Shown: positions 1-5,617, counted from the first letter of the stretch. The stretch: 35,418 nucleotides of DNA from an uncultured Bacilli bacterium (GCA_947631525.1 CANRLQ010000001.1:1-35418); one strand, 5' to 3'. Notes: generated from the sequence alone by a model not told the origin. Numbers and translations are program-made.

Positions 1-518
1 TCAATATCTTGACGTTCATATATTGGTAATATTGATTTTAATACTTTTTCTTGTTCAAATCTAAGTGGAAAAGCTCGCATATCCATTGCTTCTAGATAAC
101 TTTTTATTTGTAATTTTTTTGAATTAAGTTCATCTTCAGTATTTGCTGTTATCATAACATGCATTTGAAAATCAAATATTTTTGATTGACTTGCTGCTAA
201 TTGAGAAATAAATACTTCTAATGATTCATAATCTTGTCTAATTCTTTCTTGAATTGTTCTATCATTTTCCTCTTGATATCTTTGTTTTAAAGCATATATT
301 TCTTTGTTTAACATTTTACTAATAACAGAAAATGGAACAGGAATATGTTTCATTACAACTTTTATTCCAGAAATACTTGTTAAAGATGATAAATAACCTG
401 GTGCTATAAATCTAGGATAAGAAATAACTGATAAAATAGTTGCATATTTATCACTAATAATAAAGTGATTTGATTTAAATTCTAAACCTTTGGGTGCTAT
501 TTGTGTTCTTATATCCAT
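1..518 (-). CDS. VirB4/TrsE-type conjugative-transfer ATPase, N-proximal part (partial, continues past the left edge)
   Basis: Absent from the ORF track because no stop is reached. Hand translation from the ATG at 518-516 gives MDIRTQIAPKGLEFKSNHFIISDKYATILSVISYPRFIAPGYLSSLTSISGIKVVMKHIP..., the segment that precedes the NTPase domain in Gram-positive VirB4 homologues. I checked 421..518 codon by codon and found no stop; the rest was read less strictly. The start overlaps the upstream stop as TAATG, and the gene lies downstream of a VirB3-like gene. Confidence 0.55.
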   Translation of the reverse strand, partial: MDIRTQIAPKGLEFKSNHFIISDKYATILSVISYPRFIAPGYLSSLTSISGIKVVMKHIPVPFSVISKMLNKEIYALKQRYQEENDRTIQERIRQDYESLEVFISQLAASQSKIFDFQMHVMITANTEDELNSKKLQIKSYLEAMDMRAFPLRFEQEKVLKSILPIYERQDI

Positions 519-1066
519 TAGCCAATCACCCCTCCAAATGTAGTAGTTTGTCCACCATTTAAGAAGTTATCTAATATAATTCTTAAATCATCATTAGTAA
601 CCTGATGTGATGTTAAGCCAGCATTGGCAAAACTATTTATAAGTTGTCTTATTCTTTTATTTATTTTTTCATTATCTGATTCAGCAAATAACAAGAAATA
701 TTCTGTATCAACGATATTATTATTCATAAAACTATTTGCTTTATTGATATCTTCAATAATCATTTTTCTTTTTATTTGATCTTGGGTTGAATTAAATAAC
801 AACTGCAATTGTGATAGATAAACATTAATATCAACAGGCCTATCTGCAGATATTACCCAAAATTCATAATCTATCATATTATAAGCATTTTTTAAATTCG
901 AAATTATTGCATCTTGAGTTGTACGTTCAAGAATAAATAAATTTCTAGGTATAATTTTTATTCCAGTAACTTTTTTATTGTTATCAAGAACAATCATCCC
1001 ATTTGTTATACTTTTTACTGGTACAAATGAATTTGTATATTTACTACTATTTTTCGTCTGACTCAT
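518..1066 (-). CDS. conjugation protein resembling the extreme N-terminal domain of Gram-positive VirB4 (TcpF / Tn916 Orf16 type), here a separate ORF
   Basis: 182 aa. The stretch FVPVKSITNGMIVLDNNKKVTGIKIIPRNLFILERTTQDAIISNLKNAYN matches the pattern I associate with the start of Firmicute VirB4-like ATPases. It overlaps the PrgI-like ORF by 20 nt and couples to the next ORF by TAATG. Confidence 0.45.
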   Translation of the reverse strand: MSQTKNSSKYTNSFVPVKSITNGMIVLDNNKKVTGIKIIPRNLFILERTTQDAIISNLKNAYNMIDYEFWVISADRPVDINVYLSQLQLLFNSTQDQIKRKMIIEDINKANSFMNNNIVDTEYFLLFAESDNEKINKRIRQLINSFANAGLTSHQVTNDDLRIILDNFLNGGQTTTFGGVIG

Positions 1067-1364
1067 CTCTTAAACACCAACCCTTCCAAATAAATTTTTG
1101 TCTACTAGTAACAAATCTCCACGCTTCCATTATAACAGTCATAACGTTATGATAATTTGGAACGGGGAAAACCAAAAATCCAATTATTGAAGCAGGTGCT
1201 ATTGCTATAAGTGCCCATACAATATCACCTATAGGTAATACCATAACTAGTATTATACTAATAATAACACCTATTATAAATAAAACTAAATCAAATTTGT
1301 TAAAGATTCCTAAAAACAATAATGATTTTTTTGAGTTAGCTGGTATTAAATATGTATCTTTCAT
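1047..1364 (-). CDS. PrgI/VirB3-like small membrane protein
   Basis: 105 aa with two central TM helices (LVLFIIGVIISIILVMVL, WALIAIAPASIIGFLVF). It sits immediately upstream of the VirB4-like genes. RBS GGGGA lies before the ATG. Confidence 0.5.
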   Translation of the reverse strand: MKDTYLIPANSKKSLLFLGIFNKFDLVLFIIGVIISIILVMVLPIGDIVWALIAIAPASIIGFLVFPVPNYHNVMTVIMEAWRFVTSRQKFIWKGWCLRDESDEK

Positions 1365-1379
1365 TTATTTCATCCCCTT

Positions 1380-1877
1380 TTATCCTTTTTTACTTTGTTT
1401 GTCCAACATTTCATTGTATTTCTTTATATCTTTTGTATATGCATCAATATTTCTTTGAGATTGTACAGATGCACTAATTGCAGAATATATAGCATCGAAA
1501 TCGTCTTTTGTTAAACGTGTTCCCGAATTAGAACGAGAATAATCTGTAAATGATTTAAATTGATCTATAAAATCTTCATGTCGTGAATTGTTAATAATAT
1601 TAATTGCTTCAGATTTTTTATCATTATCTAAACTATTAGTCAAGTTAGCAAGAGTATTATTTAAAGTATTCATATTATTTTGTTCTCTAGTTAACATATT
1701 ATTTAATTTCTTTATTTCATTAGCAACTTCACTCGAAGTTCCAGAATCATTTTTAATTCTAGCAAAACTTGTCATCTTGTCGTAAAGTTCATCTTTAAGA
1801 GAGAAATCTTCTCTATAATTACGTTTTACAGCTGCTTCATCAGTTCCTTTTAACCCTGCTTGAATAGCTTTTGTCAA
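1380..1877 (-). CDS. coiled-coil N/K/E-rich protein, most likely the frame-shifted C-terminus of the VirB6-like gene
   Basis: The track start is a TTG with no RBS. The same frame is open upstream to 2045 and reads (L)IEVAKSKSEIEKHQEKINELENKRIAKHPGISAAGEIAYGF..., which continues the coiled coil that ends ORF 2023..3609. Confidence 0.5.
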   Translation of the reverse strand: MTKAIQAGLKGTDEAAVKRNYREDFSLKDELYDKMTSFARIKNDSGTSSEVANEIKKLNNMLTREQNNMNTLNNTLANLTNSLDNDKKSEAINIINNSRHEDFIDQFKSFTDYSRSNSGTRLTKDDFDAIYSAISASVQSQRNIDAYTKDIKKYNEMLDKQSKKG

Positions 1878-2022
1878 ATCTAAACTATCATTTCGATAAG
1901 CATTTGATGCACCTCTAGCAAAACCATATGCGATTTCTCCAGCAGCACTAATTCCAGGGTGCTTTGCAATTCGTTTATTTTCTAGTTCATTAATCTTTTC
2001 TTGATGTTTTTCTATCTCACTT

Positions 2023-3609
2023 TTAGATTTTGCAACTTCTATTAGCTACATCCTGTCTTTTAGCATTAGCAACAGCCTCTTGGGCATCAATTTCACCTTG
2101 TAATCTATCATATTCAGCAACATTTCCTTGCTGAGCTGCTATTGATTGTTGTACAATTAAATTACCTAATTGTGAAGTTGCTGCATTATATTCAGAAGTA
2201 GCAACATTTCTTGAATTTTTAGCTTCTAAATATCTATCAAGTGCATTCCTTCTATTCGTATTTATCTTGTCTATTTCTGCACGTTCAGCATTAATTTTAT
2301 TATTATTACTTCGTACTGCTAAACCATGAGCAATGGCAGAACCAGCTAATCCAACTCCTGCTCCAACAACACCCATAGTAGCATTAGATATTTGTCTTCC
2401 ACCAATAGCTTCAGTTTTTAGTTTTTTCAAAGGATTTATATTAAATGTACCATCCAATTTTAATCTAGGTATTAATGTTTCTAATAATTTAGGTACTTGT
2501 TTAACAAATATAAGAGCTCCAAGTAAGATAAATAAGCTTGTGTAGAAACCATTTTCTTGATTAGTTGATTGAATATCGGCCGCTAATTGTATAACATATA
2601 TAGCAAAATACAACGCTGCTAATCTTATAAACAAAGATAACCAAGTTTTTCCTACTTCAGTAGCCCAATTTTTAAACATATTATGTTTTGAATTATCAGG
2701 CTCTATATATGAAATAATTGGTATTGGTGCAATAATTTGTAAAGCCGCTAATTTTATACTTCGTACTGAAATATCTAAGGCAAAAGATAACAAAATTCCA
2801 CATAATATAACTCCAAATATTGTTGACAATATCCAATGATAATCAACTTGATAATCAACAAAGAAAGCATTTATTGCCGATCCGGTTCCTGGTGCTATGA
2901 CATCAATAATAGATGAGGAAACAGATACAATGGCATCTCCTGTAGAAGCAGGTGCAGTTATATTACCAATATTTAACATAGAATTTACTGTTTGATTACC
3001 AGTACTTGCGCTAGAACATAATACTCCATTAGTATTTATTTCAGTTAATCCTTCAGTTGTTATATCCCCATTAGAATCCCTAAATCTATTTAAATATCCA
3101 GCATCATATTGAAAAAATGGTCTAAAAGCTGCAAGAGATAAGAAATTAGCCGTACTAGTAGTTGTTACTGGTGTATCACAATATGGCGTCCAATATAGTT
3201 GATAACTACCTGTTTGGGTATTAGAATTAGTTGAACCTAAAATAAAGTTTCCCACTATATTATCATCTAATAATGCATTTTGAAAGTCACGTAAAAGATT
3301 AAAAACCCAAGGAAATGATATCAACATTACAAATACTAGTAATACATTAATAATGAATTTTTGAAAACCAACTTGAGCATCCATAAATTTATCAGGCTTA
3401 ACTAAATAATTTATAAATGAAAAACTCACTTTAAATAACATGAAAATACCAAGTGCTGAATATATTCTAGTTGTAAAATCATTAACATTTGACTGATTAA
3501 GAAATTCTAGTCTTGCTAAAGCATCAATCAAATTATATATAACTATTACAAAAGCATATATAAAACTATCAATTGCGGCAAAAAACCACTTTGTTGATAC
3601 TACTGTCAT
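2023..3609 (-). CDS. VirB6/TrbL-like polytopic membrane protein with a central extracytoplasmic domain and a C-terminal coiled coil
   Basis: 528 aa with multiple TM helices at both ends, a loop of about 130 aa (aa ~120-250) and a coiled-coil tail. It lies between pilin-like genes and VirB3/VirB4-like genes. Confidence 0.5.
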   Translation of the reverse strand: MTVVSTKWFFAAIDSFIYAFVIVIYNLIDALARLEFLNQSNVNDFTTRIYSALGIFMLFKVSFSFINYLVKPDKFMDAQVGFQKFIINVLLVFVMLISFPWVFNLLRDFQNALLDDNIVGNFILGSTNSNTQTGSYQLYWTPYCDTPVTTTSTANFLSLAAFRPFFQYDAGYLNRFRDSNGDITTEGLTEINTNGVLCSSASTGNQTVNSMLNIGNITAPASTGDAIVSVSSSIIDVIAPGTGSAINAFFVDYQVDYHWILSTIFGVILCGILLSFALDISVRSIKLAALQIIAPIPIISYIEPDNSKHNMFKNWATEVGKTWLSLFIRLAALYFAIYVIQLAADIQSTNQENGFYTSLFILLGALIFVKQVPKLLETLIPRLKLDGTFNINPLKKLKTEAIGGRQISNATMGVVGAGVGLAGSAIAHGLAVRSNNNKINAERAEIDKINTNRRNALDRYLEAKNSRNVATSEYNAATSQLGNLIVQQSIAAQQGNVAEYDRLQGEIDAQEAVANAKRQDVANRSCKI

Positions 3610-3625
3610 AAATTAACCTCCTAAA

Positions 3626-4666
3626 TTAATCTAGAAAACCACAAAATAAATCGGAACTACTAATACCTGTATCTAACATTAAATCAGTAACATTTACTAA
3701 AAATTCTAATAAAAATGGAACTAATAGAAATACTACAGCAACAACTAATCTTGTAGATACTTTTTTACCAGTTTCTTTCATTTTATCTTCTTCACCAGAA
3801 AATACAACACCTAAATAATCTGCAATACTTAAAACGATAACTAATATAGGAATTATATATCTAATAAGTTTTATAGCCCATGAAATCATTTTTCTAGTTT
3901 GGCTACCTTCTTTACCAAAAATATCACAATTTGCTGTGGAAGCTCCTCCACCATTTGCGGCCGCACCTTGATTTCCTGAAGGCTGATTTGCATCCGCACT
4001 TTTAGCTGCTGAAGATTGTTCTGCAACTACTCGTTGAGGTATTAATTGTTTAAAATTATTATCATTTGCCATGCCATCTCTATACCTAGTACTGTAGACC
4101 TTAGCCTCATTTCCATTAATAGGAACAAGCATGTTACATATAGGACATTTTGCTATTGAAAAAAATTTTTTTACACCATTACTTAAATTATTCATCGCAC
4201 TATCAATATATAAAGCAGGGCATAACCAACCATTACCATTAGGATTTGTTGGATCTCCTCTTAAATAAAAATCTTCTGCAAATACGCCTTGAGCAAATGC
4301 TTGACCACTATATATTCTTGTATTTTGATTATTGTTATAAGTTATAGTAACTGTTGATGACTTTATTTCACCTGATTCCTTTTCTTTAAGAAGCAAATTA
4401 TATTTTGTATTTGTATAACTTAATTTCATAAATAAACCATTTTTAATTGGTTCTACATCAATTTTCATTTCAACATAATCAAAAACATTATTAAAAATAT
4501 TCCAATCACGATTTGTTTTTTCAAATAATGTTTGTAAAACTGTTTTACTTATTACTGATTGCTCATATACACAATGAGTAACTTGTTCAGCCCTAACCTT
4601 TCTTATATCACTAAACATAAATAGACTAATAAGTAATATTGTTATATAAAATATACTTTTTTTCAT
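3626..4666 (-). CDS. secreted protein with a C-terminal VirB2-like pilin module (fusion)
   Basis: I prefer the start at ATG 4666 (RBS AGAGGTG), giving MKKSIFYITILLISLFMFSDIRKVRA (Sec signal). A domain of about 220 aa is followed by a low-complexity A/G/N linker. The tail IIPILVIVLSIADYLGVVFSGEEDKMKETGKKVSTRLVVAVVFLLVPF aligns by eye with the two small pilin-like proteins downstream. Confidence 0.55.
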   Translation of the reverse strand: MKKSIFYITILLISLFMFSDIRKVRAEQVTHCVYEQSVISKTVLQTLFEKTNRDWNIFNNVFDYVEMKIDVEPIKNGLFMKLSYTNTKYNLLLKEKESGEIKSSTVTITYNNNQNTRIYSGQAFAQGVFAEDFYLRGDPTNPNGNGWLCPALYIDSAMNNLSNGVKKFFSIAKCPICNMLVPINGNEAKVYSTRYRDGMANDNNFKQLIPQRVVAEQSSAAKSADANQPSGNQGAAANGGGASTANCDIFGKEGSQTRKMISWAIKLIRYIIPILVIVLSIADYLGVVFSGEEDKMKETGKKVSTRLVVAVVFLLVPFLLEFLVNVTDLMLDTGISSSDLFCGFLD

Positions 4667-4701
4667 ATATTGCACCTCTATTATCATATTTCTCTTTATA
4701 T

Positions 4702-4710
4702 ATTATAACA
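4702..4710 (-). promoter_or_regulatory. extended -10 element TGTTATAAT upstream of the 346-aa fusion gene
   Basis: The reverse complement of 4702..4710 is TGTTATAAT, about 36 nt upstream of ATG 4666. The -35 is weak (TATCTT at 17 nt). Confidence 0.45.
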
Positions 4711-4711
4711 T

Positions 4712-4745
4712 AAAAAAAAACAATAAGATACTAATACTTAATGTT
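4712..4745 (-). terminator. rho-independent terminator after pilin-like gene 2
   Basis: The minus strand reads AACATTAAG-TATTAGTAT-CTTATTGTT followed by T9. The stem is 9 bp with one mismatch, and it starts 26 nt after the stop at 4771. Confidence 0.5.
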
Positions 4746-4770
4746 TTTTTTATTTTTGGTTATATTTTTT

Positions 4771-5127
4771 TTAATTTTTACAATTTTCATTATTTATAAA
4801 GCAGTTTATACAAGCTGAAACTTGTTTTCCATCAAATGAATCACTACCTGATTCATCACTTGCTCTTGATAAAGTTGAAAAAATAAAACTTACAATTGCT
4901 ACTACAAAAAACACTAAAACTGCAGATATACATCTTTTAACAAACTTTCCTTGATTTTCTTTCATTTCTTTTTCTTCTTTGGCCATTACTGCTTTTCCTA
5001 AATCTAACATTCCAAAAAATATAAGTAAAACTGGTATACCTACTTTAATAAAACCTACTATAGAACTAGTAAAATAAGGAATCATGGGATCAATATCCAA
5101 TGAACAAGTATTTAATAATATATACAT
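4771..5127 (-). CDS. VirB2/TrbC-type T4SS pilin-like protein, paralogue 2
   Basis: 118 aa with two TM helices separated by the charged loop KAVMAKEEKEMKENQGKFVKR. It is clearly paralogous to 5199..5543. The Cys-rich tail reads SACINCFINNENC. RBS GGAGG. Confidence 0.5.
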   Translation of the reverse strand: MYILLNTCSLDIDPMIPYFTSSIVGFIKVGIPVLLIFFGMLDLGKAVMAKEEKEMKENQGKFVKRCISAVLVFFVVAIVSFIFSTLSRASDESGSDSFDGKQVSACINCFINNENCKN

Positions 5128-5156
5128 AATAAGCCTCCTATATAAATTATATTAGT

Positions 5157-5184
5157 ATTATAACACTAAAAGAAAAAAAATCAA
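5157..5184 (-). promoter_or_regulatory. sigma-A-type promoter (TTGATT, 16-nt spacer, TGTTATAAT) for pilin-like gene 2
   Basis: The reverse complement of 5179..5184 is TTGATT, and of 5157..5165 is TGTTATAAT (extended -10). The -35 lies in the descending arm of the upstream terminator. Confidence 0.5.
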
Positions 5185-5200
5185 TATTAAATTGATTTTT
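5173..5200 (-). terminator. rho-independent terminator after pilin-like gene 1
   Basis: Perfect 10-bp stem AAAAATCAAT/ATTGATTTTT with a 5-nt loop and a T-run of 8 on the minus strand. It overlaps the stop at 5199..5201. Confidence 0.55.
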
Positions 5201-5543
5201 AACAATCACCATTTATAAAGCATGCGATACAAGTAGTAGCATTACTTGCCTTATTTTCATCTCCCTCATCAGCCTTAGCTAATGTCTTAAATACAAATTG
5301 AACTACTGCTACTACGAAGAATACAAGTACAGCATAAAGGCAACGTTTAATAAATTTTCCTTGTGCTTCCTTCATTTCTTTTTCTTCATTAGCCATTACT
5401 GCTTTTCCTAAATCTAATAATCCCCAAACTATTAAAGCTATTGGAATTAAAATCTTAATAATAGTTACAACTAAATGTACTGTGTTTGGAACTATTATAT
5501 CAATGGTAATATCACCGCATGTAATATCTGTTAATGCAAACAT
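5199..5543 (-). CDS. VirB2/TrbC-type T4SS pilin-like protein, paralogue 1
   Basis: 114 aa. The core IPIALIVWGLLDLGKAVMANEEKEMKEAQGKFIKRCLYAVLVFFVVAVVQFVF gives a two-TM hairpin. The tail reads TCIACFINGDC. Strong RBS GGAGGAG. Confidence 0.5.
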   Translation of the reverse strand: MFALTDITCGDITIDIIVPNTVHLVVTIIKILIPIALIVWGLLDLGKAVMANEEKEMKEAQGKFIKRCLYAVLVFFVVAVVQFVFKTLAKADEGDENKASNATTCIACFINGDC

Positions 5544-5588
5544 AATAAACCTCCTCCATATATTAAGTGTATTATCACTTCTAATTTA

Positions 5589-5617
5589 ATGATACTTTAT
5601 TTTTAATAAAAAGTCAA
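5589..5617 (-). promoter_or_regulatory. sigma-A-type promoter (TTGACT, 17-nt spacer, TATCAT) for pilin-like gene 1
   Basis: The reverse complement of 5612..5617 is TTGACT and of 5589..5594 is TATCAT, with an exact 17-nt spacer. Confidence 0.5.

Follow-up and report, generated by a model that had tools for sequence, protein, structure and literature searches.

Do the type IV secretion systems (T4SS) of Gram-positive bacteria possess pilins? Guglielmini et al. reported no T4SS pilin homologs in the MPF-FATA class and described monoderms as being without VirB2 (PMC4027160), and a nomenclature review of 2025 gives VirB2 and VirB5 as absent from Gram-positive T4SS, with Patescibacteria as the single exception (PMC12857230). 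The question is raised by a locus at positions 3626-5543 of a contig from an uncultured Bacilli bacterium (GCA_947631525.1, CANRLQ010000001.1:1-35418), which was analysed over its whole length of 35,418 nucleotides and is called the window below. An initial annotation, made from the sequence alone, had proposed that this locus holds three VirB2-like pilin modules in a row, one of them fused behind a large secreted domain. We consider it reasonably probable that these modules are T4SS_pilin subunits and the monoderm counterpart of VirB2, the small forms being major subunits and the fusion a minor or tip-displayed subunit of a fibre built by VirB6, VirB3 and VirB4. The 35.4-kb window has a G+C content of 25% and belongs to a metagenome-assembled genome of 0.89 Mb (99 contigs, 85% complete), whose closest related genomes are of human gut and deer rectum origin.

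Three related modules in a row

The three open reading frames (ORFs) that carry the module are intact in the window and are as follows.

5199..5543, minus strand: pil1a, 114 aa, class-1 pilin-like hairpin
4771..5127, minus strand: pil1b, 118 aa, class-1 pilin-like hairpin, paralogue of pil1a
3626..4666, minus strand: fusion gene, 346 aa, composed of a signal peptide, a passenger and a class-2 pilin-like module

Class 1 denotes the small pilin-like proteins of the pil1a/pil1b type and class 2 the C-terminal module of the fusions. A strong ribosome-binding site lies upstream of each of the ATGs at 5543, 5127 and 4666. That of the fusion gene is AGGTG, and the ATG at 4687, from which the longest ORF would start, has none; 4666 is therefore the better start.

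The two small proteins had been described as paralogous hairpins of two transmembrane segments (TM1 and TM2) with a charged loop between them, which their identity of 53% over 109 aa (E 3e-39) and their hydropathy confirm. The same module had been recognised at the C-terminus of the fusion. There, pairwise alignment with pil1a gives 36% identity over 42 aa (E 8e-6), and the comparison by hhalign of class-1 and class-2 module alignments drawn from many genomes gives a probability of 99.6% (E 4.9e-24) over 89 columns, in agreement with that claim. As judged from these alignments, the three-in-a-row arrangement is real and far beyond chance.

The small proteins have their hydrophobic segments at residues ~21-45 and ~68-92, the fusion at 260-292 and 301-331. 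In pil1a, an acidic N-terminal tail that contains Cys9 leads into TM1; a basic loop connects this to TM2, and the C-terminal tail has the motif CxxCFxNxxC. The protein lacks a signal peptide. The class-1 ORFs, already at their maximal length, leave about 20 residues ahead of TM1 and include no hydrophobic leader. An AlphaFold2 model of pil1a, based on 34 homologues, has a mean predicted local distance difference test score (pLDDT) of 74.6 and contains a helical hairpin (residues 17-51 and 54-92, pLDDT 80-89) plus a small beta-hairpin at the N-terminus and a helix at the C-terminus. The fusion is divided as follows.

4589..4666, minus strand: Sec-type signal peptide, fusion residues 1-26, ending in ...VRA
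3932..4588, minus strand: passenger, ~220 aa, with four Cys, beginning with a conserved C-x-Y and ending in an A/G/N-rich linker
3629..3931, minus strand: class-2 module, fusion residues 246-346, with Cys247, an amphipathic helix, TM1 (IPILVIV), the loop GEEDKMKETGKKVSTR and TM2; its tail ends in FCGFLD

A Sec signal, a cysteine-bearing domain of ~220 aa and an A/G/N linker ahead of the module were thus found in the fusion as the initial annotation had given them.

Both classes have cysteines at the outer ends of the hairpin. In class 1 the conserved ones are Cys9 and those of CxxCFxNxxC; class 2 has one before and one after the hairpin, and exactly two are present in 107/136 modules. In the window fusion, cysteines occur at 32, 149, 174, 177, 247 and 342. 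This placement suggests that the end cysteines might staple the open end of the hairpin. Conserved outward cysteines, mostly in even number, are also numerous across the modules, the passengers and the giant neighbour proteins, despite no Dsb-type gene having been found.

Position in a joint Tad and T4SS locus

Related loci from metagenomes and genomes (L001, L003, L005, L006, L007, L008, L055 and L056) and loci of same-genus genomes (L017, L022 and L031) were used for comparison. On the contig, the pilin-module genes are followed by these genes.

1380..3609, minus strand: VirB6/TrbL_4-like gene, 16 nt past the fusion stop; TrbL_4 E 2.2e-6
1047-1364, minus strand: VirB3/PrgI-like gene, 68% identity to the L007 orthologue
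518-1066, minus strand: TraC-like gene, 85% identity to the L007 orthologue
3-518, minus strand: N-terminus of VirB4, 88% identity to the L007 orthologue; the gene runs off the contig

Contig C25 of the same assembly carries the remaining part of VirB4, a SpoIID+CHAP hydrolase and VirD4, and then the t6A genes tsaE/tsaB/rimI/tsaD. The gene order is constant in the eight related loci and is also kept in the source genome:

First part: large secreted proteins, DUF5411, CpaB-like, TadA-type ATPase, two TadB/C-like, small Flp-like
Middle: two pseudopilin-like, a conserved 327-aa protein, the small pilin gene (1-3 copies), the signal-passenger-pilin gene
Last part: TrbL_4/VirB6-like, PrgI/VirB3-like, TraC-like, VirB4, SpoIID/CHAP or M23 hydrolase
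End: one or two unknowns, then VirD4

The succession from the Tad genes through the 327-aa gene, the small pilin(s) and the fusion to TrbL_4...VirD4 was read in L001, L003, L005, L007, L008, L055 and L056. A search for four relaxase families in the 85%-complete assembly found none, and a tblastn search of 72,556 plasmids, with the pilins and the VirB6-like protein as queries, gave no match. Since they lie directly upstream of virB6/B3/B4, the pilin-module genes occupy the place of virB2 in a chromosomal, apparently relaxase-less machine that combines Tad and T4SS genes.

The number of copies is variable. In L005 (10001-13166), four module genes stand in a row, encoding a 126-aa small protein, a 596-aa fusion and small proteins of 118 and 143 aa, and the size of the array therefore differs between genomes. 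The same-genus relatives that were read have a single class-1 copy each.

As the modules are found at the junction of the Tad and T4SS gene sets, they might serve the neighbouring Tad-like pilus, for instance as platform or anchoring proteins, and not the T4SS; moreover, the DUF5411-bearing Tad part stands alone in other gut Firmicutes (PMC9523054). We regard such a role as hardly probable. Flp-like and pseudopilin genes are already present in the Tad set, and two-TM hairpins of this sort are not among the Tad families (the weak TadE/Tad matches in Pfam cover ~20 residues); the family that the modules do match is T4SS_pilin.

Predicted topology of the module

The interhelix loop contains 5-7 K/R, against 0-2 K/R and 2-5 D/E in the outer tails. 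Because of this distribution, the positive-inside rule predicts that the loop is cytoplasmic and that both ends of the module are outside. The loop is also the best conserved region, with 2.34 bits per column compared to 0.9-1.0 for the tails (70 modules).

Extensions of the module in other proteins agree with this prediction. N-terminal extensions are invariably preceded by a Sec-type signal peptide, and where paralogues are extended at the C-terminus, the addition is a Cys-rich tail or a wall hydrolase (NlpC/P60-like, CHAP), which therefore points to both ends being outward. Some paralogues also place a signal peptide before the N-terminal tail that pil1a and pil1b carry without one. Thus, the predicted topology puts the passenger of the window fusion outside the cell and not in the cytoplasm.

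Four such proteins were read. On contig C66 of the source genome (1310-2275, L009), after an ABC-F gene, a module without signal peptide is followed by an S/G linker and an NlpC/P60-like domain, and on contig C85 (506-1132, L010), between smc and engB, a signal peptide precedes a module with a Cys-rich tail. In L015 (1381-2577), from the same-genus genome G003, the module has a C-terminal Cys-rich spacer and a CHAP amidase domain, and in L006 (9046-9927) a signal peptide and a class-1 module are followed by an unassigned C-terminal domain of 150 aa. The module takes cargo at either end.

Assignment to the T4SS_pilin superfamily

The curated cut-off of PF18895 (T4SS_pilin) is 26.6 bits. It is exceeded by the two paralogues of the source genome on C66 and C85 (30.6 and 28.5 bits). 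Of 31 orthologous class-2 modules from other genera, 20 match PF18895 at E<=0.01 (best 8.9e-10), and the next family is matched by 4/31; among 136 full-length fusions, 42 match it and no other family is recurrent. A local hidden Markov model (HMM) made from three class-2 modules matches proteins that pass the PF18895 cut-off at 1e-14 to 1e-24, and it matches pil1a at ~4e-13 and pil1b at ~2e-12. In addition, NF045849, the family of the Mbov_0395 pilin-like conjugal transfer protein, is matched by 5/31 modules at E<=0.01 (best 2.1e-5), no match being demonstrated at its curated cut-off. Because their relatives and these profile comparisons link them to PF18895, the three modules are filed as divergent members of the T4SS_pilin superfamily.

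Several observations weigh against this assignment or against a working pilus. None of the three window copies reaches the cut-off of PF18895: the fusion module scores 15.3 bits (E 0.022), pil1b 13.9 bits (E 0.06), and pil1a has no match to PF18895 at E<=0.1. No window pilin protein matches NF045849 at E<=0.1. Among the class-1 homologues, a spurious match to the rhodopsin-type family 7tm_1 is found in 29/34, as against 28/34 for PF18895, and with the low scores of the window copies this means that single-sequence evidence is insufficient to decide the family. PF04956 (VirB2/TrbC) has 0 matches in the source genome and 2/300 in a sample of the phylum. Compared by hhalign with an alignment of 33 TrbC sequences, which represents a narrow subfamily, class 2 reaches a probability of 7.8% (E 0.0044, 54 columns, in the expected register) and class 1 of 0.2%. 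A Foldseek search of the PDB with the AlphaFold2 model of the 114-aa protein gave no hit at E<=0.001, the top ones being generic helical hairpins, and sequence-profile searches of the PDB with both module alignments found no solved pilin and only chance matches of the G-protein-coupled receptor type. The class-1 proteins are without a signal peptide, unlike VirB2, TraA and TrbC. Neither a DsbA-like protein (Thioredoxin_4, PF13462) nor VKOR or DsbB was found in this 85%-complete genome, which leaves the proposed cysteine staple without a known catalyst. The VirB6-like gene is split by a change of frame near 2030-2045: intact orthologues of 732-749 aa align in frame -2 as far as ~2029 and continue in frame -3 over 2036-1395, and a 165-aa ORF at 1380-1877 is the C-terminal coiled-coil part of the split gene. 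This is either a true frameshift or an assembly indel; because of it, the machine may be inactive in the source genome. Finally, the module genes on C66 and C85 lie among housekeeping genes, away from the T4SS.

The proposed pilin identity is therefore retained at the level of the PF18895 superfamily, through the relatives, and not at the level of the window copies themselves or of PF04956. "VirB2-like" is here a matter of architecture, position and Pfam naming and is not meant as a statement of common descent with VirB2.

The two genes among housekeeping genes (ABC-F on C66; SMC and EngB on C85) would fit another explanation, in which the module is a general-purpose membrane anchor for surface proteins, N-out and C-out, and its T4SS neighbourhood is mechanistically meaningless. 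This seems improbable to us, given that in all loci read the small pilin and the fusion are paired immediately ahead of the VirB6-like gene, that an anchor would not need the cytoplasmic loop, which is the most conserved part, and that curators describe members of PF18895 and NF045849 as T4SS-associated.

Two TM segments and a charged loop are generic among small proteins and give weak, composition-driven matches to many transmembrane families, so that holins, bacteriocin-immunity proteins or another unrelated two-TM family had to be considered. No better match of this sort was found: the matches in PHROGs all have E>0.01 and are to proteins of unknown function, Pfam gives no holin family, and there are no lysis or phage genes nearby, the neighbours being Tad and T4SS genes in a synteny that is kept across >100 genera. 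This origin appears very improbable.

The signal-passenger-pilin architecture

The initial annotation regarded a pilin module with a large passenger as unusual, which is not what we observed. With the fusion as query, 140/151 genus representatives of the family have a match and carry the module. Outside the source genome only the module aligns (residues ~240-346, in a few cases from ~145), and never the first ~140 residues of the passenger. The succession of a small pilin without signal peptide and a signal-passenger-pilin protein recurs in 29 loci from the genus search and in the earlier loci, with N-terminal passengers that range from none to ~510 residues; in L003 the equivalent gene is made of a signal peptide and a module alone.

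A profile of seven class-2 modules, searched against 1.84 billion representative proteins, matches 8510 clusters at E<=1e-3 and 3093 at E<=1e-10. Among the best 149 of the 8510 matches, 127 end in the module and carry ahead of it a passenger of 60 residues or more (median 254), and 118 of these 127 begin with a signal-peptide-like segment; 9 of the 149 are short, and 13 have an additional C-terminal extension. By these profile matches, signal-passenger-pilin is the dominant architecture in the lineage, and it is unannotated.

The window fusion begins with the signal-like segment MKKSIFYITILLISLFMFSDIRKVRA, and the V-x-A position at the end of the signal peptide is conserved in 79-93% of the 136 fusions. 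The passenger evolves at quite another rate than its surroundings: its identity to positional orthologues is 18-24%, against 48-73% for neighbouring genes. In detail, orthologue identities are 48-51% for the module (L001, L007, L055, L056), 59-63% for the small pilin, 65-73% for the 327-aa protein and 54-68% for the VirB3-like protein. Comparison with three same-genus genomes gave the following identities.

Passenger: 18-21% for the window, against 19% in a shuffled control; 18-29% over all pairs
Small pilin: 55-62% for the window; 55-70% over all pairs
Fusion module: 30-32% for the window; 30-51% over all pairs

BLASTP detects 111 of the 7381 pairs formed by 122 passengers, and no Pfam domain was found in the passenger of any of the 136 fusions. 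The passengers nevertheless have features in common. A C-x-[YFW] motif lies a few residues past the signal peptide in 113/136 fusions, compared to 18% in shuffles, a C-P motif is shared in the middle of the domain, and the number of cysteines is even in 76%. On the basis of these motifs, the passengers look like one fast-evolving domain with a cysteine framework and not like many unrelated domains. Modelling of the fusion by AlphaFold2 from a 5-sequence alignment gave a mean pLDDT of 43, with no usable fold for the passenger (<50). A word-based homologue search with the whole fusion returned the fusion itself alone, and the related-locus search returned 2 genomic loci and 1 metagenomic locus, which is insufficient for a deeper passenger alignment.

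The window fusion module is nearer to that of distant genomes (48-51%; L001, L007, L055, L056) than to that of its own genus (30-32%; L017, L022, L031), unlike the small pilin, which follows the expected relatedness. Because of this inversion, the identities hint at an exchange of fusion alleles between lineages.

Expression signals

The initial annotation had given each of the three genes its own promoter and terminator, from which individually tuned, high-level expression was suggested. The candidate signals are the following.

5589..5617, minus strand: sigma-70-type promoter-like site TTGACT-17-TATCAT, upstream of pil1a
5176..5200, minus strand: A-U-only stem-loop with a U-run directly after the pil1a stop, terminator/attenuator-like, -6.4 kcal/mol, z -2.6
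5157..5184, minus strand: promoter-like TTGATT-16-TG-TATAAT (extended -10) before pil1b, overlapping the 3' arm of the hairpin
4714..4751, minus strand: A-tract/U-tract stem-loop after pil1b, terminator-like, with A-U pairs alone, -11 kcal/mol, z -2.5
4702..4710, minus strand: extended -10 box TGTTATAAT before the fusion gene

Within the window, no terminator is detected by a consensus scan, and promoter-like sites are as numerous as chance would give. The support for this putative layout is comparative. A site of the form TTGAC[AT]-17-TA[TA][TCA]AT is present at the equivalent place in 7/8 related loci. A hairpin with a T-run follows the small pilin, with differing stems, in L001, L003, L005, L006, L007, L008, L055 and L056, and TGnTAnAAT comes right after the hairpin in seven of these (L001, L003, L006, L007, L008, L055, L056). 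The intergenic folds of several relatives are strong (-13 to -24 kcal/mol).

This conservation upholds the proposed layout for the small genes and not for the fusion gene, which has no terminator: 16 nt separate it from the VirB6-like gene, with AGGAGG alone between them. The fusion gene is probably co-transcribed with the VirB6-like gene. We also observed a stem-loop in the 5' leader of pil1a (5544-5590), between the -10 box and GGAGG, which recurs in L007, L055, L056 and L001 and may be an mRNA stabiliser or a regulator.

Proposed mechanism

The sequences show the homology of the modules to each other and to T4SS_pilin, the position of their genes, the topology signals, the conserved loop, the hypervariable passengers and a regulatory layout kept in relatives. 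From these we infer major and minor roles, polymerisation, location at the tip and binding by the passenger, and the pilin proposal would then work as follows. Each module would insert as a membrane hairpin, with its ends outward and its basic loop in the cytoplasm. Short acidic N-terminal tails can insert without a signal peptide, by insertion of the YidC type, and pil1a and pil1b might enter the membrane in this manner through theirs. In pilus operons it is common for the gene of the major subunit to lie between a strong promoter and a leaky terminator. Similarly, pil1a and pil1b would be abundant major subunits whose sigma-70-type promoter, strong ribosome-binding site and leaky terminator could provide a stoichiometric excess. 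The fusion would be a minor modular subunit, expressed from its extended -10 promoter with readthrough into the VirB6-like gene, at a lower level that is coupled with the channel genes. Its Sec signal would export the hypervariable Cys-framework passenger, which the flexible linker would tether to the pilin module.

Modules might then be extracted from the membrane by the VirB4/VirB3/VirB6 set via the conserved loop; this is proposed because the loop is the best conserved part and the sole part that a cytoplasmic ATPase could reach. They would stack into a short fibre or conduit across the wall. The modular subunit might nucleate or cap the fibre, with its passenger at the tip or sparsely on the surface, where it could recognise a partner cell or surface. 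It would in this way take the job of VirB5; Pfam scans gave no match to a VirB5 family in the 136 fusions or in the window fusion.

In the main alternative, the modules could be T4SS components that do not polymerise and instead form part of a membrane channel or stator around the VirB6-like protein, tethering to the machine domains that face outward, such as binding domains and wall hydrolases. No pilus has been seen in monoderm T4SS according to the literature (PMC4027160, PMC12857230), and the NlpC/P60-like and CHAP fusions resemble the membrane-anchored VirB1-type hydrolases of Gram-positive T4SS. Moreover, the N-terminal hairpin of VirB6-like proteins resembles the module: residues 42-99 of the VirB6/TrbL-like protein P0072 (L003, 10992-13049) match PF18895 weakly (E 0.028), and 12/31 pilin modules match the TrbL-like NF045848. 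These profile matches would also be compatible with a common origin, which the pilin and the first hairpin of VirB6 may share. Nevertheless, the small genes have their own promoter and terminator-like hairpin, suggestive of a large excess over the channel genes, they form part of arrays of 1-4 divergent copies, and hypervariable passengers suit an exposed fibre more than a buried part of a channel. We thus judge a channel or stator unlikely, if worth keeping in mind, and prefer polymerising pilin subunits.

Comparison with known systems

That pilin-like proteins exist in monoderm T4SS is already known, since curators have named them in PF18895 and NF045849; the kind is therefore a known one. 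What is new, as far as the searches described here indicate, is that such proteins are almost universal in a large gut Bacilli family, that the major form has no signal peptide and, most of all, that signal, passenger and pilin module are combined in one modular architecture, of which thousands of hypervariable variants exist.

The closest parallel is found in Patescibacteria. Quinonero-Coronel et al. described 2-11 divergent VirB2-like genes by a T4SS of monoderm type, identified via PF18895/PF04956; their article leaves the origin of these pilins open and mentions neither passenger fusions nor a Tad module (PMC12102498). According to what the nomenclature review says of Ca. Southlakia epibionticum, a six-gene VirB2-like array is essential in this cultured organism (PMC12857230). 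Both systems have PF18895-family proteins encoded by tandem divergent genes beside VirB3/VirB4/VirB6 of monoderm type, on the chromosome of a small-genome host and usually without a relaxase. In contrast to the Patescibacteria, the host here is a Bacilli lineage that bears spore genes, the T4SS is joined to a Tad-like module, one member regularly has a hypervariable N-terminal passenger of 60-500 aa, and the small members have no signal peptide.

With VirB2, TrbC and TraA, the modules share a two-helix hairpin of ~70-100 residues with termini outside and a basic loop inside, and the location beside virB3/virB4/virB6. In the hhalign trial with TrbC that gave 7.8%, the Pro of TM1, an FSG motif and K-F after the loop are in register. 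In contrast to these pilins, no significant sequence or profile similarity links the modules to them, the small forms have no long cleaved leader, conserved cysteines are present at both outer ends in place of the peptide cyclisation that T-pilin and the TrbC of RP4 undergo, and there is no outer membrane to cross.

The fusion would resemble VirB5 in its proposed role as a minor, exposed and variable subunit that sets what the fibre binds, and its gene lies beside those of the major pilin and VirB6. VirB5 is, however, a separate all-helical protein, whereas the binding part would here be covalently fused to a pilin module. Variation in copy number and sequence also recalls the Trw system of Bartonella, for which the review includes an account of variable VirB2/VirB5 copies (PMC12857230).

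In modular type IV pilins such as PilB/PilC of Streptococcus sanguinis, a lectin or vWA domain is grafted onto a pilin module. By analogy, the fusion might be viewed as a polymerisation module that carries a displayed globular domain. These pilins belong to an unrelated superfamily with a class III signal peptide, a single N-terminal helix and a C-terminal graft, whereas the graft is here mostly N-terminal, behind a Sec signal.

The integrative and conjugative elements (ICEs) of Mycoplasma have a pilin-like gene (Mbov_0395, NF045849) beside a TrbL-like gene (Mbov_0396/MMCAP2_0566) in a T4SS of Bacilli/Mollicutes type, and the window VirB6-like protein matches NF045848 and NF045889. The difference is that the Mycoplasma proteins are encoded in mobile ICEs with DNA-processing genes, and that the library description of the family is without passenger fusions.

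A pilin-like array in the virB2 position of a Gram-positive-type T4SS, in most genera of the family, stands against the stated absence of such genes (PMC4027160, PMC12857230). That the array builds a genuine VirB2-type fibre through the Gram-positive wall, with modular pilins at its tip or surface whose hypervariable Cys-framework domain picks the partner cell, is a tentative possibility. If true, monoderm T4SS had pilins all along, and the relaxase-less, near-universal machine would be an organelle of contact-dependent exchange or uptake that a small-genome lineage relies on, as has been proposed for Patescibacteria. If a fibre is formed, it would rank as the first T4SS pilus from Firmicutes-type bacteria and as a natural display scaffold, and it would offer a handle on how these small-genome bacteria, which are unculturable, make contact with other cells. 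Thousands of passenger-module proteins exist and none is annotated; in metagenomes, the conserved module might also give a simple way to locate variable partner-recognition genes.

A last parallel is the Bacillus plasmid pBMB67, which has VirD4, TrbL, PrgI and VirB4 (32% identical) together with a DUF5411/SAF/TadA set; it differs in having a MobP3 relaxase, and no passenger fusion was seen in it. Between its VirD4 and TrbL genes, a hypothetical protein of 126 aa (NC_009841.1 45370-45750; L062 11016-11396) combines a signal peptide with a two-TM hairpin whose loop is charged. No similarity to the module was detectable with three HMMs (E 0.14-1.1), and PF18895 did not match it. From its layout and position, it may represent a pilin-like component of conjugative Bacillus plasmids that has gone unrecognised.

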